A model generated the notes under the pieces. It made no database searches, had not been told where the DNA came from, and was given only the letters and a program-made list of their open reading frames with translations. Both the position numbers and the translations under genes were made by a program. This document shows, one piece after another, positions 7,795-28,631 of a DNA stretch of 64,000 nt. The DNA is from an uncultured delta proteobacterium (GTDB taxonomy: Bacteria; Myxococcota_A; Polyangia; Polyangiales; Polyangiaceae), in assembly GCA_963841435.1 (NCBI GenBank), contig CAWJCS010000005.1:160001-224000 (forward strand), in the 5' to 3' direction. Every line of letters starts with the position of its first letter. The stretch's first letter is position 1.

Positions 7795-8688
7795 GTGAGC
7801 GAAAACGACGAGAAGACACGCGTCACGCAGGTGGTGCAGGCCCCGCCGCCCGATCAGCCGGCTGGAAACGACTGCGTCGTCGTGATTTACGCCGCGGAGG
7901 CGGGTCTGCTCGGCAAGCGTTTCGTGCTCGACAAGAGCCCGCTGCGCGTGGGCCGTGGGGGTGACAACGCCATCGTGCTCGACGGCGACTCGGTGTCACG
8001 GCGGCACGCGCACTTCGAGCGGCGGGGCGGCGCGTGGCACATCGTCGACAACGGTTCCACGAACGGTACGTTCCTGAACGAGGAACAGGTGCGGGGCGAA
8101 GCGCCGCTCGCCAACGGCGATCGCGTGAAAATCGGCCCGAGCATCCTCAAGTACCTGTCGGGGCTCGATGCCGAGGCAAAGTACCACGAAGAGATCTATC
8201 GCATGACGATCGTGGATGGCCTCACGCAGATCCACAACAAGCGCTACCTCTTCGAGGCCCTCGACCGCGAGCTCATCCGCGCGCGTCGCTACGATCGCCA
8301 GCTCTCTCTTCTGATCTTCGACATCGACTACTTCAAGAACATCAACGATCAGTACGGACACCTCGCAGGCGACCACGTGCTCCGGGAGCTCGCGCGCATC
8401 GTGCAGGAACGCATCCGACGCGACGAGGTGTTCGCCCGCTACGGCGGCGAGGAGTTCGTGGTCGTGCTACCGGAAACGCCCTTGCCGGGCGGCGTGGCGC
8501 TTGCGGAAAATGTGCGCGCACGCGTCGAAACGCACGGCTTCGCATTCCAGGGGGAACGCATCCCCGTGACGATTAGCGTCGGCTGCGCCATGCTCGGTGA
8601 CGAGAAGACCGCAGTCGAGCTCATCCAGCGTGCCGACGACAAGCTCTACGAAGCCAAACGCGGCGGACGCAACCGCGTCTGCTCCTAG
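7795..8688 (+). CDS. FHA-domain diguanylate cyclase
   Basis: FHA motifs VGR, SVSRRHA, D.GSTNGT; GGDEF domain DGLT..NKR, DIDYFK.IND.YGH..GD, ARYGGEEF. Confidence 0.96.
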   Translation: MSENDEKTRVTQVVQAPPPDQPAGNDCVVVIYAAEAGLLGKRFVLDKSPLRVGRGGDNAIVLDGDSVSRRHAHFERRGGAWHIVDNGSTNGTFLNEEQVRGEAPLANGDRVKIGPSILKYLSGLDAEAKYHEEIYRMTIVDGLTQIHNKRYLFEALDRELIRARRYDRQLSLLIFDIDYFKNINDQYGHLAGDHVLRELARIVQERIRRDEVFARYGGEEFVVVLPETPLPGGVALAENVRARVETHGFAFQGERIPVTISVGCAMLGDEKTAVELIQRADDKLYEAKRGGRNRVCS

Positions 8689-8695
8689 CGCGCCC

Positions 8696-10003
8696 GTGCC
8701 CACCCCGGCCCCAGAAGGGCGCGGCCAGGAGCCGCCGCTCGTCGTCACGCGCCCGCCCGGTCAGCACTCGCGCAGCTTCATGGTGCGGCACGCTCACGCC
8801 ACGGCCCCGATGGGCCCGGGGGGCCATCCGAGCACCATCGTCTACGCCACGGCCGAGGGCGCCAACGTCACCTGCGTCAACGGCAACCGCTACGTCAATC
8901 TCGCGGGCGGATTCGGGGCCGCGCTCGTGGGCCACCGCCACCCGAGCGTGCTCCGCGCCATCGAGCTCCAATCCGCGCGCCTGTTGCACGCGCTCGGCGA
9001 CCTCTACCCCTCGGACGCGAAAGTGGGCCTCGTCGAGCGGCTTTCCAGGCTTCACCCCAGCGAGGGCGCCCAGGTGATCCTCGGTCAGTCCGGCTCGGAC
9101 GCCGTCACGATCGCGCTGAAGACGGCCTGCCTCGCGACGGGCCGTCCCGGGGTCGTGGCGTTCGGCGAGGGGTATCACGGGCTCGGCTACGGGCCGCTCG
9201 CGGTCTCGGGCTTTCGGCCGAGCTATCGCGAGCCCTTCCGCGAGCAGCTGAACGCCCACGTTTGGTTCGTGCCCTACCCCGCGACGGACGAAGAGCTCGG
9301 ACCGGCGCTCGAAGCGGTGCGCACGGCGCTCGCCACGGGAACGGTCGGCGCGATCCTCGTCGAGCCCGTGCTCGGCCGCGGCGGTGTGATCGAGCCACCT
9401 GCGGCGTTTCTGCCGCAGCTCTTGGAGCTCGCGCGTGAAACAGGGGCGCTGTTCGTGACCGACGAGATCTGGACCGGCCTCGGACGGGCGGGAAGCCTTT
9501 TGGCGGCCGGTGTCGTGCCGGATCTCGTTTGCCTCGGCAAGGGCCTGGGCGGCGGCTTGCCGATCAGCGCGGTGCTCGGCCGGCGCGACGTGATGGCGGC
9601 ATGGCGGCGCCCCGACGAGGTCGTGCACACCTCGACGTTCGCGGGTGCGCCGCTAGCGGCGGCGGCCGCGCTCGCGACGCTCGACGTGCTCAGCCGCGCG
9701 GGTTTGCCCGAGCGCGCGGCGCGGGTCGGGGCGACCTTTCGAGACGGGCTCACGAGCGCTCTCGCCCCATTTCCGGACGTCCGCGTGCGGGGCCGCGGGC
9801 TCATGCTGGGCGTCGAGATCGAGGGGCGGCCGGGCGCCGCGAGGCGCGCCCTAGTTTCGCTGCTCGAGCGCGGCTTCCTCGCGACGACCGGCGGCGCGAC
9901 GCGCGAGACGCTCGTCTTCACGCCACCGCTGACGATTGCGGAAGCTTTGCTAGCCCTCGCGACGACGGCCGTGCGAGAAGCCGTGCAGGAAGCCATTCGA
10001 TGA
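8696..10003 (+). CDS. Class III PLP aminotransferase (GabT/omega-transaminase-like)
   Basis: GNRYVNLAGGFG..VGH, QSGSDA, YHG, EPVLGRGG, DEIWTGLGR.G, PDLVCLGKGLGGG (PLP Lys), HTSTFAG. Start at GTG 8696 is inferred. Confidence 0.92.
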   Translation: MPTPAPEGRGQEPPLVVTRPPGQHSRSFMVRHAHATAPMGPGGHPSTIVYATAEGANVTCVNGNRYVNLAGGFGAALVGHRHPSVLRAIELQSARLLHALGDLYPSDAKVGLVERLSRLHPSEGAQVILGQSGSDAVTIALKTACLATGRPGVVAFGEGYHGLGYGPLAVSGFRPSYREPFREQLNAHVWFVPYPATDEELGPALEAVRTALATGTVGAILVEPVLGRGGVIEPPAAFLPQLLELARETGALFVTDEIWTGLGRAGSLLAAGVVPDLVCLGKGLGGGLPISAVLGRRDVMAAWRRPDEVVHTSTFAGAPLAAAAALATLDVLSRAGLPERAARVGATFRDGLTSALAPFPDVRVRGRGLMLGVEIEGRPGAARRALVSLLERGFLATTGGATRETLVFTPPLTIAEALLALATTAVREAVQEAIR

Positions 10004-11106
10004 CGTTCACCGTGGAGTCGGACAACCTGCACCGGCGCGTACGTCGCTTCGCGCGCGGCGAGGGCACTGACGACTTCGATACGCTCGCGCTCGAGATTGC
10101 GCGCTACCAGGCGCGACGCTCGCCGCGCTACGCGAAGCTCGTCGCGAGCCGCGGCTCGACGCTCGACGCGGCATCGAGCATCGTCGCGGTCCCCTCCGAT
10201 GCTTTCCGGCTCGCGCGAGTCGCCGTTCACCCCGAGTCCGAGGACATGGCCCGTTTCGAGACGAGCGGCACGACGGGCAGCGCGAGGGGCGTCCACGCGT
10301 TTCGCTCGCTCGAGACCTACCGCGAGCTCGCTCTCGCCTACGGCGAGCAGGCACTGCTCGGCGCGCGACGCGGGCCACGCGTCGTCGTCAGCCTCTCGCC
10401 CGCGCCGAGCGTTCCGCAGCGCTCGTCGCTCGGCTTCATGGCGGAGCTGTTCCAGGCTCGCTGGGACGGGCGCTCGCTCGGCGGGGGCCCATTCGCCGCG
10501 CGCGCCGCGGAGCGCTGGCTCGCGGGGCCGGGTGGCATCGACGTGTCCGGCCTCGAGCTGGCGTGTCTCGTCGCCGAACGCCGCCGCGAGCCGTTGCTCG
10601 TGCTCGCGACGGCCTTCGCACTGGTGGCGTTGCTCGACGCGCTCGGCGGTCGCGTGATCCCGGCGCCATCGGACAGCACCATCATGATGACGGGCGGCTT
10701 CAAGGGTCGCTCGCGCGAGGTGGTGCGCGCCGACCTGCGCCGCTCCGTCGCGCAGGCCTTCGGCGTGTCCGAAGCACACGTGGTCACCGAGTACGGCATG
10801 ACGGAGCTCACGAGCCAGCTCTACGAGGGCACGCTGCCCGGAGCGCGACTCGCGGGGGATTCCGACGTGCTTTTGCCGCCACCGTGGCTCCGCGTCGAGC
10901 CCGTCGACCCCGCGACGCTCGAGCCGGTGGCACCCGGCTCGGTCGGCATCGCGCGCTTCGTCGATCTCGGCAACGTGGACTCGGCCGTCGCGGTCCAGAC
11001 CGACGACCTGGTGCGAAACGCAGGGGTGGGCATCGAGCTCTTCGGCCGGCGCCCCGGCGCGCCGGCACGCGGCTGCTCGCTTGCGCTGGAGGCGCTCGTC
11101 GGGTGA
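10000..11106 (+). CDS. LuxE-like acyl-protein synthetase
   Basis: FETSGTTG loop, SSL.FM, TGGFKGR, EYGMTELTSQLY, PPW, DLGNVDS..AVQTDD, C-terminal GR....RGCSL (acyl-accepting Cys); ATGA overlap. Confidence 0.9.
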   Translation: MTFTVESDNLHRRVRRFARGEGTDDFDTLALEIARYQARRSPRYAKLVASRGSTLDAASSIVAVPSDAFRLARVAVHPESEDMARFETSGTTGSARGVHAFRSLETYRELALAYGEQALLGARRGPRVVVSLSPAPSVPQRSSLGFMAELFQARWDGRSLGGGPFAARAAERWLAGPGGIDVSGLELACLVAERRREPLLVLATAFALVALLDALGGRVIPAPSDSTIMMTGGFKGRSREVVRADLRRSVAQAFGVSEAHVVTEYGMTELTSQLYEGTLPGARLAGDSDVLLPPPWLRVEPVDPATLEPVAPGSVGIARFVDLGNVDSAVAVQTDDLVRNAGVGIELFGRRPGAPARGCSLALEALVG

Positions 11107-12146
11107 GCGCGCGCGCAGAGGCACGGCGCCGTGTCGAACGTCTCGTCGAGGCCGCTCGGCTGATCGCAACACCCGGGAGCGGCCTCGGGCAACGCGCCCG
11201 GCGCGAGCTTCCGGAAACGACGGGGCTTTCCGCCCAGGGCGTCGAGCTTGCGCTCACCGAGTGCCTCGAGAGCGAGCCGACCGAGCAGGAGCTCGACGAG
11301 CTCGTCGGCGCGGCGGCCCCGGCGCGACGCGCGCACGTGCTCTTGCCCGCGAACGTTTTCGTTGCCGCACACCGGGCCATCGCGCTCGCGCTCGCGGCGT
11401 CACCGGAAGTGTTCGTGCGACCTTCGCGTCGGGAGCCGTGCTTCGCGCGTCTACTCGCCGAGGGCGCCCCCGGATTGTTCCAAATCGTGGACAACCTCAA
11501 GCCAGAGCCCGGCGACACGCTGCATGCCTACGGGACCGAGCAGACTCTCGAAAGCGTTCGCCGGGAGCTTGTTCTGGGCGTCCACCTCGAGGCGCACGGA
11601 CCCGGGCACGGCGTCGCCGTGGTCGAGCAGGAGCGCGCCACGCTCGGCGCCGCACGAGCCATTGCTCGTGACATCGTGCCGTTCGACCAGCGCGGCTGCC
11701 TGAGCCCACGCGTCGCGCTGTTCGTCGGTACCGTGGATGCCGCGCGTACGTTCGCCCAGGCCGTTGCCGGTGCGCTCGCCGAGCTCGAGGCGCGCGTTCC
11801 ACTCGGGCGGCTCGACGCCGAAGAGCGCGCCGAAATCGCGCGTTTTCGCGACACGTTCGCCTACGCGGGCGAGCTTTTTCCGGCGGGCTCGGGCTGGGTC
11901 GCCATCGGGCCCGAGCGCGCGCCCCGTGTCGCACCGGACGGACGCAATCTGTTGATCCTACCGAGCGCCGACCCCGTCCGAACCCTCGCTGGCTCGGCGC
12001 CCGAAGTGACGGCGCTCGGTCTCGCCGCCGGACAGAAGCACGAGGCCTCGCTCGCGGCGACGCTACCCCGCGCGCGATACTCCGCGCTCGGCGCGATGCA
12101 GCGGCCGCGCTTCGACGGACCCGCCGACCGGCGCGGCATGGCCTGA
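11103..12146 (+). CDS. LuxC-like acyl-CoA/acyl-protein reductase (compact ALDH fold)
   Basis: LPANVF, AYG...T, HGPGHG, DIVPFDQRGCLSP (catalytic Cys), LGAMQRP..D..D; GTGA overlap. Confidence 0.85.
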   Translation: MSARAEARRRVERLVEAARLIATPGSGLGQRARRELPETTGLSAQGVELALTECLESEPTEQELDELVGAAAPARRAHVLLPANVFVAAHRAIALALAASPEVFVRPSRREPCFARLLAEGAPGLFQIVDNLKPEPGDTLHAYGTEQTLESVRRELVLGVHLEAHGPGHGVAVVEQERATLGAARAIARDIVPFDQRGCLSPRVALFVGTVDAARTFAQAVAGALAELEARVPLGRLDAEERAEIARFRDTFAYAGELFPAGSGWVAIGPERAPRVAPDGRNLLILPSADPVRTLAGSAPEVTALGLAAGQKHEASLAATLPRARYSALGAMQRPRFDGPADRRGMA

Positions 12147-12186: not shown

Positions 12187-12570
12187 CTACTTGCCGGCGA
12201 GCTTCTTGGCGCGCTCCTTGGCCGTCTCGACGATGTGCTTGGTGTCGGCGTCGGAAAACTCGAGGTGCTCCGCGAGCGACTTCAAGAGCTTCGCCTCGGC
12301 CGGCGTCTGCTTGCCGTCGGCGTGCGTGAGAAGCGCCGCGTGCGAAAGTAGGATCTCCCGGCCCTCGGCGTCGAGCGCCTTGGCGACGATGTCACCCTTG
12401 ATGGTGCGCTTCTTCTTGGCAAACTCGCGGATTTCCGCCTCTTCCTCGTCGCTCGCGCCGAATGCCCAGAGCAGGCTGTCGATCATGCCGGACTCGGGCT
12501 CCGCGAGAGACCCGTCCGCCCACGCCACGGCCACCAGCGACTTCACGATCGTCTTCTCGACAGGGGTCAT
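12187..12570 (-). CDS. TerB-family protein
   Basis: Two LVAVAWADG..E / LTHADG..E helical repeats. Confidence 0.8.
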   Translation of the reverse strand: MTPVEKTIVKSLVAVAWADGSLAEPESGMIDSLLWAFGASDEEEAEIREFAKKKRTIKGDIVAKALDAEGREILLSHAALLTHADGKQTPAEAKLLKSLAEHLEFSDADTKHIVETAKERAKKLAGK

Positions 12571-12716: not shown

Positions 12717-14591
12717 CTAGTCGACCAGCGGTAGCCGGCGCGGGGACGCCTGCCGGTCGGCGCGGACGACGACGCTGAGCGGACCGTCAGGAAGCGGCAG
12801 ATTCTGGTTCTTCGCGTACACGGGGTGGCGGCCGCGCGTCTTGAACCATTCGGCGACCGTCGCAGTGCGCTTCATGCTCTCGACGATCTGACGGAAGCCG
12901 ACGCCGGTGTTGTAGGCGCAGAACGAGATCTCGCCGAGCTGTGTGCCGTAAGGAATGATGCACATCTCGGTGCGACGAAAGTCGTAGTTGTAGAGATCCT
13001 GGAACCACATGCCCGCCACGAACAAGAATCGCCATTCGAACTCGCCGGCGTCGCCCTCGCTCGCGCCCACGCGGTCTCCACTGGCTCCCATCTGGCTCGT
13101 TGCCTGGCGGAAGAGCTCGTAAAACGAGTAGCCCTTCGGGGCGCGCTCGGCGCGGTAGTTCCGGAGCAGCGAGAGTCCCATCGCCGTGAGCGTCGCCGGG
13201 CGGGAGAGCGCCAGATCCGCAACGGACTGCATGTCGGCGAGCACCGCCTCGATGTCGATGATCTCGGCGAGCGGCACCATTTGCTTGGTGCGCTTGTTGA
13301 CGAGCAGCACCGTGCCGATGCCGCAGTTCGGGTGACAGCCGCAGTTGAGCGCGCCAAATTGCGCGTCCTTGCCGAGCAAGAGATCCACCACGTCGCTCAG
13401 CGAGTTCATGGCCGAGAGCGGGAACCAGTCACGGTGGGGCTCAGTGGCGCCGAGCTGGCGGTGCACGTCCCAGGCGAGGTGCGAGAGCGTGTAGCGCTCT
13501 GCGAGGCGCCGCTCGTCCTCGATGTTCTCGTCGCGACCGGTGAAGCTCACGGGCTGAAACGAGACGACCGTGATCTTGTCGGCGTTGTCGATTGCGAAGC
13601 GCACGACGGGGCCGACCTGGGCGTCGTTGACGCCGTTGACGACGGTCACGACGAGCACGACGTCGATCCCCGCGGCGGCGAGGTTCTCGATCGCGCGGAG
13701 CTTCACGTCGAACAAGTTGCCCACCTTGCGATGCGAGTTCGCTTCGTTCGTGACGCCATCGAACTGCAGGTAGCAGAGCCTGAGTCCGGCCTCTCGCACC
13801 GCATGGCAGAGCTCCGGCTCCTGCGCGAAGCGAATGCCGTTCGTCGCGCACTGCACCGAGAAGTAGCCAATCTTTCTGGCATGGGCGATGGCGCGGAGAA
13901 AGTGCGGGCTGAGCGTCGGCTCGCCACCCGAAAACTGCACGCTGAGCTGCCGGCGCGGCTTCACGGACAGCGAGTCGTCGAGGATCTGCTGCACGTCCGC
14001 CCACTCGAGCTCGTGGACGAAGCCGACCTGATTCGCGTCCATGAAGCACGGGTCACACATCATGTTGCAGCGGTTCGTGAGGTCGACCGTGAGCACGGCA
14101 CCGCGCCCGTACTTGATCGACGAGGTGCCGTGCTTGCGGAGCGGCGTCGGCGGCGACTTCTGGTCACGCCCCGGAAACAAGCGCTCGATGCGGGACAGGA
14201 ATGCCGGGTCGATACTGATCACGTCCTCGAAGGCGCCGTGCTTGGCACACTCCTTCTGCATCACGACGGCACCGCCCTTTTCCACGATGTGAGCGCGGAT
14301 TTCGCCCGGGTGCTCGTGCAGAAAGGAGGACATCTCCATGGCGCCGGACAGCACCGCCGCCCGCGCCTCGCGCACGCATACCGGACAGAGCGAGTCGGTC
14401 TGCCGCGGCCAGCCGAGTGGCGGAAATGACTTTTGACGCCGTTTGGAAAGCGGCGCCGCCGCCCAGGGGGGCTTCAAGGTCTGCCCCGGAAGTCGCTCGC
14501 CGAGCGACATCACGAGCGGCCAGGCAAGGTTGGCGGCCCGGCCGACGAGCTTCTCGGTTCCGATTCTCAGGGCCCGGAGCGAAGCTGGCAT
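12717..14591 (-). CDS. Radical SAM enzyme, tetraether synthase (Tes/GDGT-MAS, MJ0619) family homologue
   Basis: TDSLCPVC...KECAKHG, radical SAM CNMMCDPC, QFSGGEPT, YLQFDG, CGCHPNCG, GMWFQDLYNYD.RR..C.I.Y.....ISFCAYN. Confidence 0.85.
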   Translation of the reverse strand: MPASLRALRIGTEKLVGRAANLAWPLVMSLGERLPGQTLKPPWAAAPLSKRRQKSFPPLGWPRQTDSLCPVCVREARAAVLSGAMEMSSFLHEHPGEIRAHIVEKGGAVVMQKECAKHGAFEDVISIDPAFLSRIERLFPGRDQKSPPTPLRKHGTSSIKYGRGAVLTVDLTNRCNMMCDPCFMDANQVGFVHELEWADVQQILDDSLSVKPRRQLSVQFSGGEPTLSPHFLRAIAHARKIGYFSVQCATNGIRFAQEPELCHAVREAGLRLCYLQFDGVTNEANSHRKVGNLFDVKLRAIENLAAAGIDVVLVVTVVNGVNDAQVGPVVRFAIDNADKITVVSFQPVSFTGRDENIEDERRLAERYTLSHLAWDVHRQLGATEPHRDWFPLSAMNSLSDVVDLLLGKDAQFGALNCGCHPNCGIGTVLLVNKRTKQMVPLAEIIDIEAVLADMQSVADLALSRPATLTAMGLSLLRNYRAERAPKGYSFYELFRQATSQMGASGDRVGASEGDAGEFEWRFLFVAGMWFQDLYNYDFRRTEMCIIPYGTQLGEISFCAYNTGVGFRQIVESMKRTATVAEWFKTRGRHPVYAKNQNLPLPDGPLSVVVRADRQASPRRLPLVD

Positions 14592-14646: not shown

Positions 14647-15804
14647 ATGAACCTGCTCGAGCGGCCGCTCGTCATCGTCTGCGACGTACACCTTTCGCAC
14701 GACGGGCGACGAGAGACCGGTCGCGATCTCGCTCGTTTGCTCGGGCGTCACCCGGACGCGGAAGTGGTGCTAAACGGCGACATTTTCAACCTGTCGCTCG
14801 ACCCTGCGAGTCGCGATCCCGTCGAAAGCGTCATGGGGATGCTCACTCCCGAAGCGGAGCTCAAAGAAGCTATGGGGAACCACCTGCGCGCCGGCTCGCC
14901 GATCCGCCTCCTGCCGGGCAATCACGATGCCGCCCTGGCGCTGCCGGGCCTTTCGGGCCCGTTTCTCGGCTGGCTCGGGCTCGACGAGCGGGCGCCGTTT
15001 TCGATCGTCCCGTGGTTTCTTCGGCGTGGCGGGGTCCACGTCGAGCACGGCCACGTTTACGATCCGGACAACGCGCCGAGCCATCCGCTCTGCGTGCCGA
15101 GCGCGGCGACCGAGCCGCTCGGCGTTGCCCTTACGCGACGCTTCCTCGGCCCGAACCAAGCTTTCGACTTCGCGCACGCGACGGAGATCACGCCGCTCGC
15201 GGCACTCGAGCGCGCGGTCCACGTGTTCGGCCCGAGGATGCCCATGATGCTCGCGCGCTACTTCCTCGAAGCGGGGCGCTTCTGCCACCACGCTGGGTTT
15301 AGCCCGGCGCTCGCCGACGAGCTCCGGACCGGCGACGCACGGCTGGCCGAAACGGCCGAGGCAACGGGCGTCCCCGAAGGCGAGCTACGTGCCTTGCTCG
15401 ACGATCGACCGCGCCCGACGCACGAAAGCTTCGAGCGGGCCTTCTTCCGGCTGTACTTCGATCGCGTCGCGACCACGGTGGGAGCGCTCGGGCTCGTCGG
15501 CCTCGGCCTCGCGACGCGCAGTGTGGGCGTGCTCGGCCTGGGTGCGCTCTCGGCGCTTTACCTCGGGCGATCCGTGCGAGGCGGCGCGAATCGCTATGCC
15601 GGGCTACCAGTGCGGCGCTTGCGTACCGCGAGCGAGCGCGTTCGCACGCTAACGGGAGCAAGCTCGGTGATCTTCGGTCACACGCACGTGCCCGACACGG
15701 CGCCCGGCTACCTGAACCCGGGGTCCTTCACCTACCGGAGCGGCCCGGGACGACCGTACGCGTACGTCGAGCCGTCCGGTGGCGTGAGGACAGAGCTCAT
15801 CTGA
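14647..15804 (+). CDS. Calcineurin-like metallophosphoesterase (LpxH-like) with C-terminal TM hairpin
   Basis: CDVHL, LNGDIF, GNHD, EHGH..D, FGHTH, YLNPGSF; hydrophobic pair before the last motif. Confidence 0.85.
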   Translation: MNLLERPLVIVCDVHLSHDGRRETGRDLARLLGRHPDAEVVLNGDIFNLSLDPASRDPVESVMGMLTPEAELKEAMGNHLRAGSPIRLLPGNHDAALALPGLSGPFLGWLGLDERAPFSIVPWFLRRGGVHVEHGHVYDPDNAPSHPLCVPSAATEPLGVALTRRFLGPNQAFDFAHATEITPLAALERAVHVFGPRMPMMLARYFLEAGRFCHHAGFSPALADELRTGDARLAETAEATGVPEGELRALLDDRPRPTHESFERAFFRLYFDRVATTVGALGLVGLGLATRSVGVLGLGALSALYLGRSVRGGANRYAGLPVRRLRTASERVRTLTGASSVIFGHTHVPDTAPGYLNPGSFTYRSGPGRPYAYVEPSGGVRTELI

Positions 15805-15826: not shown

Positions 15827-16897
15827 TCAGAAGGTGCCGGTCGCGAACAGCCCCGCGCCGTCCGTGGCGACGAGCGGCGTGAGGCGGAGCGTGGGCTCGA
15901 ACGCGGCTGGCGCGGGTTCCTTCGCGCTCTTGCTGCCGATGATGACCATGCCGACGCCGGCCGCGGCGAGCACGCCGCCGCCAATGAAGAGCACGTTCGT
16001 GACGGTGGCGAGCGACTTGGCCGAGTCGAAGTCGCTCGCGGCGCTCGTCCTGCACACTTTGTTGGAGTCGCAGGCGTCAGTCGCCTTCGTTTCTGCCGAG
16101 CGGGCCATCACGCCCGTGATGACACCGCCCACGACGGCCGCGACGCCGACGCCGGCGGTGACGAACCCGATGGTGCGCAGTGGCGAGGACTTCTTCGCCG
16201 GAGCGCCCTGATCCTGCTGGGCGGGCGTCTGCTGGGGCGGCGACTCACCGGGCTGGGCGGCAACCGCGGGCGCCGCGACGGCCGCGCCGGCCACACTGAA
16301 ATCGAAGCGATGCTCGACGGTTTTGCCGGGCGACAGCACGATCTCCCACCTCTCTTGGCGACCGTCACCCGCCGTGGCGGTGATGCTGTGAGTGCCCCCA
16401 CGCAGCCGGAGCGTCAGCGAGTCGCCCTGGAATTTGTAGGCCTGCGGGGGAACGCTGCTGCCGGCGCGCGCGTCGATGACGTTGGCGTCCGGCGAGACGG
16501 TGGTGAGGTTCACGACGGCGCTGTTGCCCGAGATGAGCAGCGAGTCGCGCTCGAGGGCCTTGCGCTCCTCGGGGTCGATGTCGTTGCCGCCGCTCTTCAG
16601 GTAGTTCGTGTAGTGCTCGAGCGCCTCGCCGTCGCGCTCGAGCTTGAGCGCGCAAAGGCCCAGGTTGCCGAGCACCTTCCAGGACCCGCTCTTCTCGTAG
16701 GCGAGCTTGAACTGGTAGTAGGCGTCCTGGTAGTTCGGGGGGGAGCTCTGGATGAGGTTGACGCCGTTGCGAAAGTAAGCCTTCGCCTCGTCCGAGATCT
16801 TGTCCTCCGCGCGAGCGATGCTCGAGCCGAAGAGGAGGGAGGCGAGCACCAGGACAGCGAGTCCGCGGCGCGCGAGGAACGTAGAAAGCATGCCCAT
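15827..16897 (-). CDS. Exported TPR/PEGA-like protein with C-terminal TM segments
   Basis: Signal peptide, TPR (AY..F..AY...VLGNLGLC..L.R..EAL..Y..YL), beta domain, two TM helices, terminal aromatic (ATGTF). Confidence 0.8.
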   Translation of the reverse strand: MGMLSTFLARRGLAVLVLASLLFGSSIARAEDKISDEAKAYFRNGVNLIQSSPPNYQDAYYQFKLAYEKSGSWKVLGNLGLCALKLERDGEALEHYTNYLKSGGNDIDPEERKALERDSLLISGNSAVVNLTTVSPDANVIDARAGSSVPPQAYKFQGDSLTLRLRGGTHSITATAGDGRQERWEIVLSPGKTVEHRFDFSVAGAAVAAPAVAAQPGESPPQQTPAQQDQGAPAKKSSPLRTIGFVTAGVGVAAVVGGVITGVMARSAETKATDACDSNKVCRTSAASDFDSAKSLATVTNVLFIGGGVLAAAGVGMVIIGSKSAKEPAPAAFEPTLRLTPLVATDGAGLFATGTF

Positions 16898-16974
16898 GGC
16901 GAGTGAGAGTGCCAGAGTGCAGGGCTTTTTTCCAGCCCGGCGCAGGTTCCGGCAGGCCTTTCGGGGCCGTTCGG

Positions 16975-17652
16975 TCACGGGCGGATGATTTGGGTGCCCT
17001 TCGGGGGGTTGAACACGAACTCCCCTGGCGGGGCCGGCCGGTTCACTTCCGTGGCGATGAAATCGAAGCGGTTGCGGTTCCCCTGGGCATCGATGAGGAG
17101 CACGCGGCGCACCTGGTAGGTTCCGATGTTGACGTACAGGATGAGGTGTTGGTAGGCAGGTGTGGGGTCGAGTGGCTCGCCGAGCAGCACGTATCCGCCC
17201 TCGAAGTTGTACTGCTTCGAGTCCCCCTTCTTGAGCTTGTGCGACTGCCGCAGGCTTCCATTGCCGACGAGGAACGCGAGCGCCGCCGGGTAGGGGCTCT
17301 TGCTCATCGGTTGCTCGAACATCTGCTTGTTTTCTTTTTCGTAAACGCGGATGAGCTTGCCGTCGGAAACGATGCGGTTGCCGTTGTTCGTGTACCGCCA
17401 GCTCATCTTGCCGGGCTTCTGGAAGATGACGGACCCGACGCCCTCCTTGGTCTTGGCGTAGGCCTTGGCGGCGTACACCTGCCGGAATCCGGCCTTGAAG
17501 GTCTTCGCCTGGTCGTAGAAGGCCTGGATGCGGTCGGCGATCTGCTCGGCCGTCGGGGCGGCCGCCGGCGGGTCCGACAGCGCGGGGGGCGCCACGCCGA
17601 ACGCGGCGGCCGCAGGCAGGAGGGCTAGAAGGGAGCGGCGGCTGAGCAACAT
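16975..17652 (-). CDS. lolA: Outer-membrane lipoprotein carrier LolA
   Basis: FKAGFRQ, G.V.FQKPGKMSWRY, IVSDGK, D..GN.N.F.F, F.F.PP.G. Start chosen 7 nt after TAGAAT. Confidence 0.88.
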   Translation of the reverse strand: MLLSRRSLLALLPAAAAFGVAPPALSDPPAAAPTAEQIADRIQAFYDQAKTFKAGFRQVYAAKAYAKTKEGVGSVIFQKPGKMSWRYTNNGNRIVSDGKLIRVYEKENKQMFEQPMSKSPYPAALAFLVGNGSLRQSHKLKKGDSKQYNFEGGYVLLGEPLDPTPAYQHLILYVNIGTYQVRRVLLIDAQGNRNRFDFIATEVNRPAPPGEFVFNPPKGTQIIRP

Positions 17653-17807: not shown

Positions 17808-18320
17808 CTAGAACGGCCGCTTCGCCGGCCGGAGCCGGGCCACGGCGCGAATGAGCGGCGCGACGCGGAGGTGCGTGATGGCGAGCGCCAGCGCGTCGGC
17901 GGCGTCCGGCGGCGGGGATTCGGAGAGGCCGAGCGTGGCGCACACGAGCAGCGTCACCTGGCGCTTGTCGGCCTGCCCGCGACCCGCCACGGTGCGCTTC
18001 ACGCGCGCGGGGGCATACTCGGCCACACCGACCGCGGCGCGCGCGAGGCAGAGCAGCACGACGCCGCGAGCGTGGCCGAGCTTCGCGGCCGCCTGTGGGT
18101 CCTTGTGGAAGAAAAGCGACTCGACCGAGCCCACCTCGGGCCGGAAGCGCTCGATGACCTCGGCGAGCCCGCGCTCGATGGCAACGAGCCGGTCGGCGAG
18201 CGGCGCGTGTGGATCGAGCACGAGAACCCCGTGGGCGCGGTGCCGGAGACGGCTGCCCTCGCGCACGACGACTCCCCAGCCTAGGCGGCGAGTTCCGGGG
18301 TCGATACCGAGGACGATCAT
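17808..18320 (-). CDS. ruvC: Holliday junction resolvase RuvC
   Basis: MIVLGIDPG, VESLFF, LGHARGV, EYAP..VK..V.G.G.ADK.QV, DAADALALAITH. Confidence 0.97.
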   Translation of the reverse strand: MIVLGIDPGTRRLGWGVVVREGSRLRHRAHGVLVLDPHAPLADRLVAIERGLAEVIERFRPEVGSVESLFFHKDPQAAAKLGHARGVVLLCLARAAVGVAEYAPARVKRTVAGRGQADKRQVTLLVCATLGLSESPPPDAADALALAITHLRVAPLIRAVARLRPAKRPF

Positions 18321-19896: not shown

Positions 19897-21249
19897 TCAG
19901 CGTCGGCGACGGCGCAGCCCGGCGAGCCCGAGCGCGATCAGCAGGAGCTCGGCGTAGGGGCCGTGCGCCTCGCCCGTCGAGACGGAGCAGCCACCGCGCT
20001 CGGTCGTCACGGGCTCAGCCTTCGTGCCGGTGCCGCCGTTCGCGTTGGTGCCGCCCGAGCTCTGACCGCCGCTGCCCGTACTCGTGCCGCCGGTCGAGCT
20101 CGCGCCCGTGCCGCCAGTGCCCGTATTCTCGCTGCCGCCGGACGTCGTGCCGCTCGAGCCGCCCGTGCCCGTGCCGCCGACGCCACCGATGGCGCCCTGC
20201 CCGGTGGCGCCCGAGCCGACTCCACCAGCGGAAACCGAGCCACCCGTGCCGAGCCCGCCGGTGCCGACCGTCCCGCCGGTTTCGAGCGGCATACAGGTCC
20301 CCGCGGCGAGCTCTCCCATGCCGCCTCCGGCGCCCGCAGGCGGAGCGGCGTCCATTCCGCCGCCCGTGCCGCTGGTCGTCCCGCCCGAGCCCGTCGTGCC
20401 GCTCGAGCCGGCAGTCGCACCACCCGAGCCCGTCGTACCGCTCGAGCCGGCGGTCGCACCGCCCGAGCCCGTCGTGCCGCTCGAGCCGCCCGTGGTCATG
20501 GCCGTGCCGGCGGAGCCACTCGCTCCACCCGCGCTACCGCCACCCGTGCCACCCGGCGTGCTCCCGCCCGACGAAGAGGCACCGCCAACCGCAGACCCTC
20601 CGCCCGCTCCGGTGCCGCCCGTGCCAAAGCCTACGAACGCGCAGTAGAACCCGGGAGCGCAATCGGCCTCGCTCGTGCATTCGCCGGCATCCGGGCTGCA
20701 GCGACCCGTGACCGTGCAGTCGGCCGGACAGCTTGCCGCGGTCTCGTCGCCCGTGCAGAAGGCATCGCCACAGAAGGGAGCGTTCGGGCCCCCACCGGTG
20801 CCGGGTGGGCTCGAGACCGCGCACGAGTAACCTTCGGCGCAGTCAGCGCTCGTCTCACATTCGGCGAGCACGCAGTAAAGGGTCGGCGTGCAGTCGTCCG
20901 GACACGAGTCGGCGGTTTCTTCGGGGGCCTGGCAATATCCGTCGCCGCAGACGATGGCGGGCACGGGCACGGAGCTCGCCCCCGCCGACGCACCGCCCGT
21001 TGCCGCACCCCCGCTACTCGTGCCCGCGGTGGAGCCACCGGAGCCGCTGGTACCACCCGTCGATGCCCCACCGGTGCCCGATGATGCGCCGCCGCTGCCG
21101 CTCGTCGGCGGGCTCGCTGGCTCGCAAGCAAACCCGTGACCGCAGTCGTCGTCGGTGGCGCACTCGTCGGCATGCGCCGAGCGCGATACGGTCAGGGCCA
21201 GGCCGAGGGCGGGAACCAGGTGGAGCGCGGAGCGGCGGAGGAGACCCAT
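19897..21249 (-). CDS. Cys/Gly-rich surface protein with MYXO-CTERM tail
   Basis: Signal peptide (AHA|DEC), C.TD.DC..G..C and CGD..C...E....CP.DC repeats, tail GGCSV...LLLIALGLAGLRRRRR. Confidence 0.85.
   Translation of the reverse strand: MGLLRRSALHLVPALGLALTVSRSAHADECATDDDCGHGFACEPASPPTSGSGGASSGTGGASTGGTSGSGGSTAGTSSGGAATGGASAGASSVPVPAIVCGDGYCQAPEETADSCPDDCTPTLYCVLAECETSADCAEGYSCAVSSPPGTGGGPNAPFCGDAFCTGDETAASCPADCTVTGRCSPDAGECTSEADCAPGFYCAFVGFGTGGTGAGGGSAVGGASSSGGSTPGGTGGGSAGGASGSAGTAMTTGGSSGTTGSGGATAGSSGTTGSGGATAGSSGTTGSGGTTSGTGGGMDAAPPAGAGGGMGELAAGTCMPLETGGTVGTGGLGTGGSVSAGGVGSGATGQGAIGGVGGTGTGGSSGTTSGGSENTGTGGTGASSTGGTSTGSGGQSSGGTNANGGTGTKAEPVTTERGGCSVSTGEAHGPYAELLLIALGLAGLRRRRR
20381..20488. 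repeat. In-frame 39-bp tandem repeat (about 2.8 copies)
   Basis: Units start at 20381, 20420, 20459; encode GSSGTTGSGGATA on the minus strand. Confidence 0.85.
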
Positions 21250-21261
21250 GCGACCGAGAGG

Positions 21262-21277
21262 AGCAAGCCGTGTGCCA
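21262..21277 (-). promoter_or_regulatory. Sigma54 (-24/-12) promoter
   Basis: Minus strand reads TGGCAC-ACGGC-TTGCT, an exact consensus match ending 12 nt upstream of ATG 21249. Confidence 0.75.
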
Positions 21278-21366
21278 CGGCCGCAACTCCCCACTATACG
21301 CCTTTTTCGGCCGAGCACGGTCGGCAACGGGCCAATTTGTGCCAAGGCGGTGGTATCGTGCCCCCT

Positions 21367-21885
21367 GTGATGTCGCGCTCGATCGTCGCGGCGCTCGGTG
21401 TCGTCTGCGCGCTCGCCGGGTCGTGCAAGCTCGCCCGCAACGAGGAGCAGTCCGATCGGGCCCTGCCCCCGCCGGAGCCCGCGGCGAGCGCCCTTCCAGT
21501 GAAGGTGGAGGAGCGAGACCCGCAACCCGTGGCTCGCCCCCGTGAGACGGAGCACGCGCCGTCGCAACCCGCGCCGGCCGCGGCGCCCGGGCCTGCCGCT
21601 ACGCCAGCCAGCCCCACCACGCCGACAGCGACAGCGACGGCGGCTGCGCCCGCCACCGCCGCATCGTCGAGCGCACCCGCCCCGCCCTCCTCCGCCCCCG
21701 CGGCCGTGGCCGTCCCCACGATGCCGACCGCCCTGCCGAACGCCAATTGCCTCCCGAAGTGCCAGTCGAGCCTGCAGGCCTGCGTCGCTCGTCCGGTCTC
21801 GCTGGACGCCGGCATGCCGAGCCTGGAGTCGATGGCCGAGTGCCGGAAGGCCTTCGAGGACTGCCGCACCGCGTGCACACCCTAG
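21367..21885 (+). CDS. Small Pro/Ala-rich lipoprotein with Cys-paired helical C-terminus
   Basis: Lipobox LAGSC; C-terminal C..KC...L..C...C...F..C...C. Confidence 0.7.
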   Translation: MMSRSIVAALGVVCALAGSCKLARNEEQSDRALPPPEPAASALPVKVEERDPQPVARPRETEHAPSQPAPAAAPGPAATPASPTTPTATATAAAPATAASSSAPAPPSSAPAAVAVPTMPTALPNANCLPKCQSSLQACVARPVSLDAGMPSLESMAECRKAFEDCRTACTP

Positions 21886-22027
21886 CGTCTCGACGCGAGA
21901 CGGTCCGGCGCGGAGTTTTCTCAAGGAAGCGGCAAAATTGCCGTTCGTTAACGGCGTGTTCGGCGCGCGCCCGAGCTCGAGAAGCGGACCCGTTGACTGA
22001 ACGCTCGCGCCGGAGCCTGCGGCCGTT

Positions 22028-25626: not shown

Positions 25627-26988
25627 TCAGGGTTTTCGGCCGCACGCCTCGGCGGGGTAGTCACTCGGCAAAAGGGCGCGGGGGACGCGGTCGCGGACGG
25701 TGCTTTCGCTCTCCTCGTTCACGACGGAGTCGCAGAGGTTCGCGGGGTCGCCCGTCTTCCTGGGAGGCCGCCAGGTCGGCGTCGCGTCGGCTTCCTGAGG
25801 CCTGGGCGGCGGCGAGCGCTGCGCGCCGAGCGGCGCTCGCACCGACGGTCGCGCCGAGAAGATCCGGCTGTCGGCCGTCGGCGTGTCCATACGGTCACGC
25901 CGCGAGAGAAGCTGGTAGGCGAGTGCCTCGGGCAGCGCGCGCGCCGACGACTGCACCGCGTCGATGACGGTCCGCCTCTCGACGCTCATGCGCTCCCGCA
26001 CGACGCGCGCAACGTCGGTCTCGACGACGACTTCGCCGCGCTCCATCAACCACTCCTCGAGCGCGGAGCGCATCTCGTCCGCGGTCTGGAACCGCTCGGA
26101 TGGATTCGACGCGAGCGCCTTGACGACGATGGCCTCGAGCCCTTCGGGGTAGTTCGAGCGCAGCTCGCGCGGCCGTAGGTACTTTCCCTGCACGATCTTG
26201 CCGAGGGCCGTGGCGCCCCCGCCGAAGGGCCGGAGACCCAGCGTGGCGATGTAGAGGACGCAACCCATCGCGTAAACGTCGGCGCGACGATCGATCGAAC
26301 GACCGAGGATCTGCTCGGGCGGAATGTAAGCGAACTTGCCCTTGATCTCGCCCGTGCGCGTACGCGAGTGCAGCTGATAGCGCGCCTTGGCGATCCCGAA
26401 GTCGCTCACCTTCACGTGCCCGTTGTTCGAGATCATGATGTTCGGCGGCGACACGTCGCGGTGGACGATGCCGAGCGCGTGCCCGTCGGGACCCAGTGCG
26501 TCGTGTGCCGCGTGGAGACCCGAGCAAGCTTCGGCGGCGATGCGCGCGGCAATCGGGTCGGGCAGCGGCGCGAGCTCGCCCCCTCGCTGCAAGAGACCGC
26601 TCAGCGACTCGCCGGCAATCCACTCGATGACCATGAAGAGCAGATCGCCGTCGCGACCCAGCTCGTACGTTTCACAGACGTTCGGGTGACGAATCGCGGA
26701 GGCCACCATCGCCTCGTCGACGAACATGCGGCCGTACTCTTCGTCGGCGCTGAATTCGGGCAAGACGAGCTTGATGGCGACGGTGCGCGCCAGCCCGGCC
26801 GTGTCCGGACGGGCGGCCCAGACCTGGGCCATGCCGCCCGCGCCCACGGGAACGAGTAGGCGATAGCGCCCGATGGAGCGGCCCCGCAGAATGCCGATGC
26901 GCTCGGCCGTGCTCGACAGGTTGGGCTCGGTCCTGTCCCCCTCCGCAGCTTGCGGCTCATGAGCATCGCTCGAGCGCTTCTCACCCAT
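25627..26988 (-). CDS. Ser/Thr protein kinase, cytoplasmic
   Basis: GAGGMA, VAIK, HRDVSPPN, DFG, GKFAYIPPEQ, DVYAMG; no TM in the C-terminal tail. Start uncertain (26988 or 27000). Confidence 0.93.
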   Translation of the reverse strand: MGEKRSSDAHEPQAAEGDRTEPNLSSTAERIGILRGRSIGRYRLLVPVGAGGMAQVWAARPDTAGLARTVAIKLVLPEFSADEEYGRMFVDEAMVASAIRHPNVCETYELGRDGDLLFMVIEWIAGESLSGLLQRGGELAPLPDPIAARIAAEACSGLHAAHDALGPDGHALGIVHRDVSPPNIMISNNGHVKVSDFGIAKARYQLHSRTRTGEIKGKFAYIPPEQILGRSIDRRADVYAMGCVLYIATLGLRPFGGGATALGKIVQGKYLRPRELRSNYPEGLEAIVVKALASNPSERFQTADEMRSALEEWLMERGEVVVETDVARVVRERMSVERRTVIDAVQSSARALPEALAYQLLSRRDRMDTPTADSRIFSARPSVRAPLGAQRSPPPRPQEADATPTWRPPRKTGDPANLCDSVVNEESESTVRDRVPRALLPSDYPAEACGRKP

Positions 26989-27230
26989 GCTAGATTTCAC
27001 CGTACATCACCCGTCTTCGTCGGACCAGAGTCTCGACACACGAACGACCGCTTTTTGTCGTACTTTTTCTCCCCCCCGCACACCAATTTCGAGCGCGCGC
27101 CACGCGGTATGAAAAAGTCTCTTCGGCCGCTCCACTACCAATTGGTCCCGCGAACGGCCGGGAAGCGAATCACGCGATGGGCGGAGGACGAGCGATTGGG
27201 AGTGCGCCACTTGGAGCACAATGAAGGGTA

Positions 27231-28631
<1,401 letters not shown>

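Follow-up and report, generated by a model that had tools for sequence, protein, structure and literature searches.

The window analysed here, the whole 64,000-nucleotide stretch from an uncultured delta proteobacterium of the family Polyangiaceae, carries at positions 12717-14591 of its minus strand a gene whose product, P0001, is an enzyme of the radical S-adenosylmethionine (SAM) type and belongs to a derived bacterial offshoot of the Tes/GDGT-MAS family, the family of the tetraether lipid synthase Tes. P0001 is a distinct bacterial variant and does not simply belong to the characterised Tes family, because one defining metal centre, the N-terminal [4Fe-4S] cluster, is absent and because its score against the Tes model lies below the cut-off. 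What is new here is the definition, with signature motifs, of a clade that lacks this cluster, which is dominant among Acidobacteriota and present in most of the sampled Polyangiaceae. The most likely function of P0001, which we hold with moderate confidence, would be the tail-to-tail carbon-carbon coupling of bacterial lipid chains by Tes-type chemistry. The gene and its parts are as follows, in window coordinates:

12717..14591, minus strand: P0001, a 624-residue Tes/GDGT-MAS-like radical SAM enzyme (open reading frame [ORF] and translation)
14403..14591, minus strand: N-terminal extension, residues 1-63, a predicted helix (2-33) followed by an extended linker (model and alignment)
14214..14408, minus strand: rubredoxin-like site, residues 62-126, with C69, C72, C115 and H118 (Pfam PF23545, E 2.8e-13, profile positions 2-44)
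14097..14213, minus strand: former N-terminal cluster segment, with the clade motif FPGRD...LRxHG(S/T)S(S/T)..KYGRG (alignment)
13596..14081, minus strand: radical SAM core, residues 171-332, with C175-X3-C179-X2-C182 (Pfam PF04055, E 2.1e-20)
12867..13394, minus strand: C-terminal domain, residues about 400-575, aligning with GDGT-MAS at its catalytic [4Fe-4S]C site

The gene and its family

The reading frame comprises 624 codons with no internal stop, and its GC contents at codon positions 1, 2 and 3 (0.65, 0.45 and 0.88) show a bias of the coding type in a genome of 70% GC; this is a genuine and well-conserved gene. A first-pass annotation of the DNA had described it as a Tes-like enzyme of a myxobacterium and had named several motifs, all of which are found in the translation: C69-P-V-C72, C115-A-K-H118 and C175-NMM-C179-DP-C182 in the N-terminal half, and C419-HPN-C423-G, C544 and F557-C558-AYN towards the C-terminus. 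The extra N-terminal stretch that it reported as ending in PPLGWPR is seen at P57-PLGWPR63, and the myxobacterial host agrees with the nearest homologues, which are 62-80% identical and come from Polyangiaceae records.

The proposed kinship with Tes and GDGT-MAS is borne out by profile, structure-database and fold comparisons. The top NCBIfam match of P0001 is NF045702 (tetraether lipid synthase Tes), with 324.7 bits over positions 1-480 of the 486 in the model, and the second is TrsS (NF045646), a radical SAM (seleno)protein, with 211.4 bits (cut-off 490) and a best stretch that spans residues 97-383 only. As Tes proper, P0001 falls short, its 324.7 bits lying below the curated NF045702 equivalog cut-off of 450. 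Pfam recognises the domains Zn_ribbon_HMPTM (the HMPTM N-terminal zinc ribbon) at residues 62-126 and Radical_SAM at residues 171-332. The sole whole-length solved relative is the M. jannaschii GDGT-MAS (PDB 7tol_A, E 6.4e-62), with MoaA next at E 4e-6. An AlphaFold2 model built from a 42-sequence alignment (predicted local distance difference test [pLDDT] 88.3, predicted template modelling score [pTM] 0.90) is matched by Foldseek to 7tom/7tol at E 2.7e-38, with a template modelling (TM) score of 0.87 on the target, and VIA-align superposes model residues 61-589 on chain residues 1-498 of GDGT-MAS (7tom) with Z 46.6 and a root-mean-square deviation (rmsd) of 2.4 Å over 480 of 498 residues at 30% identity. 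The next VIA-align entry is again MoaA, with Z 20.9 and a match to the radical SAM core only. In the model, the four-domain fold of GDGT-MAS is present.

Metal sites and N-terminal extension

GDGT-MAS is described as containing a rubredoxin-like iron site (C9-X2-C12-X20-C33-X2-H36), an N-terminal cluster ([4Fe-4S]N), the radical SAM cluster and a C-terminal cluster ([4Fe-4S]C) (Lloyd 2022, PMC9433317). According to the same source, [4Fe-4S]N lies at the surface with C73, C77, C80 and a His as ligands, and [4Fe-4S]C, with its labile Met439, lies close to the substrate's terminal carbon and bears the proposed sulfur-carbon intermediate; Tyr459 and Met439 are reported to be conserved across 1000 archaeal homologues, and the roles of the metal centres other than [4Fe-4S]C are called unclear. 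We mapped the residues of P0001 onto GDGT-MAS by counting columns in a HMMER alignment with 7tol_A. Conservation within the clade was counted over 74 proteins, namely 73 complete ones from 80 loci together with the window protein, these loci being the best 80 among 592 relatives found in a scan of species-representative genomes and serving for all locus-level counts. Comparison with the remainder of the family uses alignment A1, in which the 23 Tes-side rows are those on the Tes side of the split in tree 1 (see below), and the 19 P0001-side rows are 18 clade rows and P0124.

The rubredoxin-like site and the radical SAM core are retained. C115 and H118 of P0001 align with C33 and H36 of GDGT-MAS; C69 and C72 are kept in 73 of the 74 clade members, and C115 and H118 in all of them. 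The spacer between the two halves of the site is 42 residues long in P0001 as against 20 in MJ0619, and a helical insert of about 22 residues (about 73-95), which P0124 and the Tes rows lack, lies between the rubredoxin knuckles. The radical SAM cysteines C175, C179 and C182 are retained in 74/74 clade members.

The N-terminal cluster is where P0001 departs from GDGT-MAS. The first-pass annotation had reported the motif CP..CGLC as missing, and indeed the CPYDCGLC of GDGT-MAS aligns to a segment free of Cys: residues 116-174 contain none, and all three Cys that bind the cluster in GDGT-MAS are missing. The pattern CPxxCGxC occurs in 20 of the 23 Tes-side rows, with variant spacing in one further row (P0254), and in none of the 19 P0001-side rows, which carry LRxHG(S/T)S(S/T)..KYGRG in place of CPxxCGxC...H. 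Two of the 74 clade members have a Cys anywhere in this segment, one each. Model confidence is reduced at this region (pLDDT 67 and 53 for the blocks at 141-160). Because the roles of the GDGT-MAS centres other than [4Fe-4S]C are called unclear (PMC9433317), the chemistry could persist without the N-terminal cluster.

The surroundings of the catalytic C-terminal cluster are shared with Tes. M528 and Y548 are the equivalents of Met439 and Tyr459, and C423, C544 and C558 align with Cys of GDGT-MAS. The 23 Tes-side rows have equivalents of C423, M528, C544, Y548 and C558 in 23, 23, 23, 18 and 23 cases, respectively; within the clade C423 is found in 74/74 members and each of M528, C544, Y548 and C558 in 71/74, the other three rows being gapped at M528 and C544. 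We take C423, C544 and C558 to be the probable ligands of the C-terminal cluster because these Cys and the Met occur in every Tes-side row. All 74 clade members further share C417, C419 and H420. Of the 23 Tes-side rows just 2 have C417 and 9 have C419 (window about 13335-13343 for the two); this pair of Cys could alter how the catalytic cluster is ligated or have another binding partner.

The N-terminal extension has no counterpart in GDGT-MAS, whose chain residue 1 meets residue 61 of the model. The first-pass annotation had called it amphipathic, which holds to a moderate degree: the AlphaFold2 model has a predicted helix at residues 2-33, and the hydrophobic moment peaks at 0.44-0.46 at residues 13-33, as against a mean of 0.23 for the remaining protein. 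The helix is followed by the linker motif P41-x-W43...P47-L48-x-K50...P57-x-L59-G60-W61-P62-R63, whose residues are kept in 52-73 of the 74 clade members, with 54 to 73 of 74 for the P..LGWPR residues of the PPLGWPR region. Nearly all matches in the genome scan begin at query residue 13-24 and hence span the extension; the acidobacterial representative P0121 has it too, and P0124 has a shortened form.

Phylogeny, distribution and genomic surroundings

Relatives of P0001 extend over several phyla. In a protein search the 119 listed matches besides the query were 71-80% identical, and the named ones belong to Polyangiaceae or Myxococcota. In the genome scan, Polyangiaceae and other Myxococcota were 61-76% identical, and identities of 52-64% were found for Acidobacteriota (Terriglobales, Bryobacterales, Blastocatellia, Vicinamibacterales and others) and Gemmatimonadales, as well as for a few bins labelled Pseudomonadota or Patescibacteria. 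At least one carrier is in culture, Polyangium fumosum DSM 14668 (L028). The frames are intact in all listed genomes, with no internal stops. Among the best 120 matches of a second protein search the acidobacterial orthologues are mutually 85-92% identical, and clusters of them at 90% identity hold up to 2074 member sequences; this identity and cluster size fit a core function.

Searching 1.84 billion representatives exhaustively with HMMER retrieved 481 proteins at E<=1e-30. When 37 long representatives (473-1045 aa) were scanned on the Tes model, the P0001-like ones scored 141-414 bits and 0/9 reached the cut-off, which is reached by 18 of the 23 Tes-side rows. Two trees were built. Tree 1 (69 rows; IQ-TREE quick search, LG+C20 with posterior mean site frequencies [PMSF]; support from the Shimodaira-Hasegawa-like approximate likelihood-ratio test [SH-aLRT] only, no bootstraps) separates 46 P0001-side from 23 Tes-side rows by branches of SH-aLRT 100. 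Tree 2 (50 rows, LG+G4, quick search, likewise no bootstraps) has four cut-off-passing acidobacterial Tes and seven distant Myxococcota paralogues added, all eleven of which carry CPxxCGxC. With midpoint rooting, the paralogues fall on the far side of the root in a separate clade of SH-aLRT 100, and the P0001 clade (21 rows, support 100) lies among the Tes rows, the intervening nodes having support of 83-93; a 35-row subgroup (support 99) unites the P0001 clade with acidobacterial Tes. The approximately unbiased (AU) test of a topology with all 22 Tes rows held together gave p 0.064, a value weakened by the fact that the test group was named after the tree had been seen. The first-pass annotation would have counted a grouping outside the Tes clade against its proposal, and tree 1 gives such a grouping in part, with P0001 in a clade of its own; tree 2 nests that clade among the Tes rows, and on these comparisons either a nested or a sister placement would be compatible with the trees. 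The stem branch of the P0001 clade is long in both (0.42-0.70). From the tree placement, and from the AU test with paralogues that retain CPxxCGxC, we take the loss of the N-terminal cluster in this clade to be derived.

P0001 is the only Tes-family gene of its own genome; four further weak matches to the Tes model there proved to be a MoaA-like protein and three SPASM maturases of the type that acts on RiPPs (peptides made on the ribosome and modified after translation), and are no relatives of Tes. The Tes model finds a match at E<=1e-40 in 51 of 301 sampled Myxococcota genomes, and in no case does the score reach the cut-off. Matches resembling the window's own, full-length and with 313-357 bits, come from 17 of the 23 further genomes sampled in this family (Polyangiaceae) and from a single genome elsewhere in the class, and the remaining Myxococcota matches are paralogues of 158-254 bits, many of them over the first 320 model positions only and often in tandem. 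Two or three tandem Tes-like paralogues are found at G059:C309:41575-45643, G110:C586:2158-4958, G121:C568, G285:C9 and G147:C52 (loci L094 and L095 among them); these score 177-245 bits and may belong to a biosynthetic cluster.

Among 301 sampled Acidobacteriota genomes, in tallies that take in three unpublished ones (G450, G328 and G353), 184 have a match to the Tes model at E<=1e-60, of which 40 are above the cut-off. The many sub-cut-off matches that are individually listed are full-length and have 315-360 bits, like P0001. By an approximate hand count, about 129 of the genomes have their best match at E 1e-88 to 1e-107, and the listed matches in this range run from model position 1 or 2 to at least 475 (mostly 482-484) in frames of 635-895 aa. 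Judged by these matches, the P0001 type appears to be the commonest Tes-like form among the sampled Acidobacteriota. Both the P0001 type and a cut-off-passing Tes are present in G301, G349, G445 and G528. In G528 (L086, on C14) and G445 (L087, on C18) the two types share a strand and are separated by 4-6 kb; the interposed and flanking genes are a convergent sortilin/BNR-repeat gene, a lytic transglycosylase gene and unknowns, with no lipid gene among them.

The immediate neighbours of the P0001 gene in the window are the following:

12187..12570, minus strand: TerB-like gene, 127 aa (Pfam TerB, E 8.3e-9), directly downstream after a gap of 146 bp
14647..15804, plus strand: divergent calcineurin-like metallophosphoesterase gene (Pfam Metallophos, E 3.7e-6), with ATG at 14647
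8597-12146, plus strand: class-III aminotransferase, LuxE-like acyl-protein synthetase and LuxC-like acyl-CoA reductase genes, convergent, downstream

The TerB-like gene may be co-transcribed with the P0001 gene. It adjoins the orthologue in 3/80 loci (L007, L010 and L036), all of them close relatives, a pattern that may reflect simple shared descent. The metallophosphoesterase gene, which has no matching NCBIfam family, starts 55 bp from the ATG of the radical SAM gene and stands beside the orthologue in 8/80 loci, all from myxobacterial relatives. The aminotransferase, LuxE-like and LuxC-like genes together resemble a pathway that converts a fatty acid to an aldehyde and on to an amine; overlap among the ORFs as listed implies that their actual starts lie further downstream. 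This trio is found near the orthologue in 3-5 of the 80 loci, again all close relatives.

Lipid-type neighbours occur elsewhere in the clade, each a weak hint limited to one lineage. A B12-binding radical SAM gene lies directly downstream in two Gemmatimonadales loci (L066:10043-11527 and L074:9888-11405), with the hopanoid C-3 methylase HpnR as top NCBIfam match (339-351 bits, cut-off 650), and a different B12 radical SAM gene lies 40 bp upstream in a Bryobacteraceae locus (L081:4034-5566); these may be C-methylases of lipids that work together with the Tes-like enzyme. A fatty-acid-CoA-ligase-like gene is found about 110-125 bp upstream in L043 and L054, and in three loci of Angelobacter the Tes-like gene has a PEMT/ICMT-family methyltransferase gene next to it. 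The Terriglobia loci have housekeeping genes around it (gatC, gatA, dciA and a mutY-like gene).

Genes for enzymes of the ether-lipid type are found at other places in the source genome, where the first-pass annotation had suggested looking for elbD and ger. An ElbD-like multidomain enzyme of 1628 aa is encoded at G000:C3:79802-84796 on the minus strand (L088:7803-12689), with NAD_binding_4/Sterile, AMP-binding, PP-binding and Acyltransferase domains, the domain set of ElbD; by its domains the gene is a candidate ElbD-type ether-lipid locus. It adjoins an NAD-dependent epimerase-family gene and has a HAD hydrolase gene nearby. For ger two routes were taken: PF09989 led to a PlsA/Ger-like protein of 1213 aa with two BcrAD_BadFG domains and DUF2229 (G000:C3:820848-824489, plus strand; L098:2849-6490), and PF06050, uninformative for Ger because it had no match in the Thermotoga maritima control either, had none in the genome. 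The order BcrAD-BcrAD-DUF2229 is the 'BBD' pattern listed for the Ger homologue of Edaphobacter aggregans in Table S21 of Sahonero-Canavesi 2022 (PMC13159169). A 636-aa protein without a Pfam match follows the PlsA/Ger-like protein.

The further content of the window includes an FHA-GGDEF diguanylate cyclase gene (7795-8688, plus strand), an FHA-sigma54 activator gene (27231-28631, plus strand) and a Ser/Thr kinase gene (25627-27000, minus strand), typical myxobacterial signalling content. Three ORFs, at 15827-16978 (minus strand), 17871-18284 (plus strand) and 19897-21924 (minus strand), encode 383, 137 and 675 aa with no Pfam match at E<=0.001; the last has weak codon bias (GC3 0.77, GC2 0.75) and may be no gene.

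Proposed function and comparison with known systems

That P0001 couples lipid chains tail to tail is suggested by the family resemblance, by a clade range that overlaps the acidobacterial subdivisions making iso-diabolic acid, and by the scattered lipid-gene neighbours. In the mechanism that we propose, two SAM molecules would give rise to 5'-deoxyadenosyl radicals, each abstracting a hydrogen from the terminal carbon of one lipid chain; the first chain radical would be stored on the C-terminal cluster through a C-S bond, and the second would attack this bound chain to form a C(sp3)-C(sp3) bond. The substrates would be bacterial tails, likely the iso-branched acyl or alkyl chains that glycerolipids carry, and the product would be membrane-spanning chains of the iso-diabolic-acid type, with the N-terminal helix perhaps holding the enzyme at the membrane surface. 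We speculate that loss of the N-terminal cluster may suit aerobic soil bacteria, on the grounds that the cluster lies at the surface (PMC9433317) and that the hosts are aerobic (PMC13159169).

The proposal bears on a gap described for Acidobacteria. According to Sahonero-Canavesi 2022 (PMC13159169), iso-diabolic acid is made by acidobacterial subdivisions 1, 3, 4 and 6, a search of the producers turned up no Mss, and Tes homologues in 3/14 cases only, at E<=1e-50 and >=30% identity, and the conclusion drawn is that aerobic Acidobacteria must use 'an alternative pathway'. The P0001 clade is about 28-31% identical to GDGT-MAS (Foldseek, VIA-align), so a threshold of >=30% could miss it. Carriers of the P0001 type are found in Terriglobales, Bryobacterales, Blastocatellia and Vicinamibacterales, which are lineages stated to make iso-diabolic acid. 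It is a tentative possibility that the clade without the N-terminal cluster supplies the tail-coupling enzyme of subdivisions 1, 3, 4 and 6 (for iso-diabolic acid and hence for the core of brGDGTs [branched glycerol dialkyl glycerol tetraethers]); that the source organism of the window itself produces brGDGTs we think rather unlikely.

The idea that bacterial Tes homologues make brGDGTs has been in print since 2022. Zeng 2022 (PMC8941075) reports 456 bacterial homologues, in 'Acidobacteria and various Proteobacteria', proposes a role in brGDGT synthesis, and gives identities of 32% for the homologue in E. aggregans and 40-42% for those in Koribacter and Solibacter; the terms 'Myxococc' and 'Deltaproteobacteria' are absent from its main text. 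Candidatus Solibacter usitatus (S. usitatus) was picked for a homologue 40% identical to the archaeal Tes MA_1486 and was found to have abundant brGDGTs (Chen 2022, bioRxiv), the one bacterial culture linked to brGDGTs by such a choice, a link that rests on the cut-off-passing Tes type, 40% identical to archaeal Tes, and not on the P0001 type. Myxobacteria are cited for ether-lipid genes (Sahonero-Canavesi PMC13159169; Halamka PMC10087280; Black Sea study PMC11868695), and the Black Sea study (PMC11868695) lists Myxococcota for homologues of Mss, Ger, ElbD and Agps and not for Tes.

Several points weigh against lipid tail coupling by P0001. The score lies below the Tes cut-off, one of the four metal centres of GDGT-MAS is lacking, and the assignment of the C-terminal cluster ligands comes from invariance. 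S. usitatus is reported to have two Tes homologues and undetectable iso-diabolic acid (Halamka 2022, PMC10087280), and it is marked as being without this lipid in Table S21 of Sahonero-Canavesi 2022 (PMC13159169); a Solibacteraceae record (L059) carries the P0001 type. A preprint on the GDGT bridge synthase (Hbs) and methylase regards as true Tes only those bacterial sequences that fall inside the archaeal part of the tree. In the literature searched we found neither an assay nor any other study of a member of the P0001 clade, nor were diabolic acids or membrane-spanning lipids reported there from myxobacteria, and a 2026 review (PMC13459092) has no assay of a bacterial Tes homologue reported. 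Nor does gene order help: tblastn of 15 window neighbours against the 80 loci gave matches at no more than 8/80, in close myxobacterial relatives only, and when 1222 flanking ORFs were clustered de novo, no neighbour was common to different phyla, the largest cluster covering 13/81 loci (the 80 and the window).

Some of these observations would suit the same radical chemistry acting on lipids with another product, such as a macrocycle, a cross-link at another carbon or a lipid of another class, in which case no lipids of the iso-diabolic-acid or brGDGT type would be made. We consider this the main rival, possible if improbable. Macrocyclic archaeol and GDGT are both products of the single active site of GDGT-MAS (PMC9433317); C417 and C419 near the active-site cluster and the long stem branch (0.42-0.70) fit an altered specificity; the co-occurrence of both types in G301, G349, G445 and G528 is as expected for non-redundant functions; and S. 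usitatus lacks iso-diabolic acid although the Solibacteraceae record holds the P0001 type. The surroundings of the C-terminal cluster, including the Met and the Tyr, are however the same as in Tes, the range of the clade fits the acidobacterial subdivisions that produce iso-diabolic acid, and no conserved neighbour points to an alternative product.

A non-lipid substrate (a pterin, another cofactor or a peptide) is quite improbable. Such a role is brought to mind by the label '7,8-dihydro-6-hydroxymethylpterin dimethyltransferase', still given by the Joint Genome Institute (JGI) to many members, by TrsS as the second NCBIfam match at 211 bits, by the housekeeping surroundings in Terriglobia (gatCA, dciA, mutY-like) and by the distant Tes-like paralogues of Myxococcota in tandem arrays that resemble biosynthetic clusters. 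The pterin label, however, is inherited from MJ0619, which has been reassigned to lipids, and binding of a pterin in the active site is judged unlikely (PMC9433317); the TrsS score is far under the cut-off of 490; the whole GDGT-MAS fold is matched at an rmsd of 2.4 Å, including the C-terminal lipid-pocket domain; and no precursor-peptide-like or cofactor gene is conserved alongside. That P0001 is a decayed, non-catalytic relic of Tes, in which loss of the N-terminal cluster ended electron delivery and activity, is hardly credible: one metal centre is gone and the score is under the family cut-off, but identities are 62-80% in Polyangiaceae, 52-64% across phyla and 85-92% in Acidobacteria, the catalytic residues are invariant, the frames are intact in all listed genomes and new invariant motifs have been gained.

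The clade is a concrete candidate for the missing tail-joining step of the aerobic Acidobacteria that make iso-diabolic acid, and a natural experiment on the purpose of the N-terminal cluster of Tes. If lipid tail coupling is the function, the Polyangiaceae, most of whose sampled genomes carry the type, and the Gemmatimonadales would likewise be makers of membrane-spanning lipids and contribute to the soil signal of brGDGT palaeothermometry, brGDGTs being widely used to reconstruct past temperature and pH. Should the function be confirmed, gene-based surveys of brGDGT producers limited to archaeal-branching sequences or to >=30% identity would miss the commonest bacterial form.

The closest characterised system is GDGT-MAS/Tes itself (MJ0619; 7TOL, 7TOM; NF045702), with which P0001 has in common the fold, the CX3CX2C motif, the rubredoxin-like site of three Cys and a His, the aligned Cys of the C-terminal cluster, the labile Met and the neighbouring Tyr. 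P0001 differs in lacking the ligands of the N-terminal [4Fe-4S] cluster and in having two extra invariant Cys beside the C-terminal cluster site, an N-terminal extension of 60 residues, an insert of about 22 residues between the rubredoxin knuckles and a conserved C-terminal tail; its host, unlike that of MJ0619, is a bacterium with fatty-acid-based instead of isoprenoid lipids. The cut-off-passing acidobacterial Tes belong to the same family and phylum as many relatives of P0001, and sometimes to the same genome, but those at L089-L092 retain CPxxCGxC and lack the features of the P0001 clade, and they score 568-619 bits on the Tes model. The distant Myxococcota paralogues (e.g. L093-L095 and L097) share with P0001 the architecture of zinc ribbon and radical SAM domain; they score 160-257 bits, many over model positions 2-320 only, and 7/7 of those extracted retain CPxxCGxC. 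Mss, which we set beside P0001 by published description only, is remotely related to Tes, confined to anaerobes and not found in the Acidobacteria that produce iso-diabolic acid (PMC13159169), and is proposed to share the cluster-assisted mechanism (2026 review, PMC13459092). It is a radical SAM enzyme of Thermotoga and Thermoanaerobacter that couples fatty-acid tails to diabolic acids in E. coli (PMC13159169), and its product class equals the one that P0001 would be expected to make.

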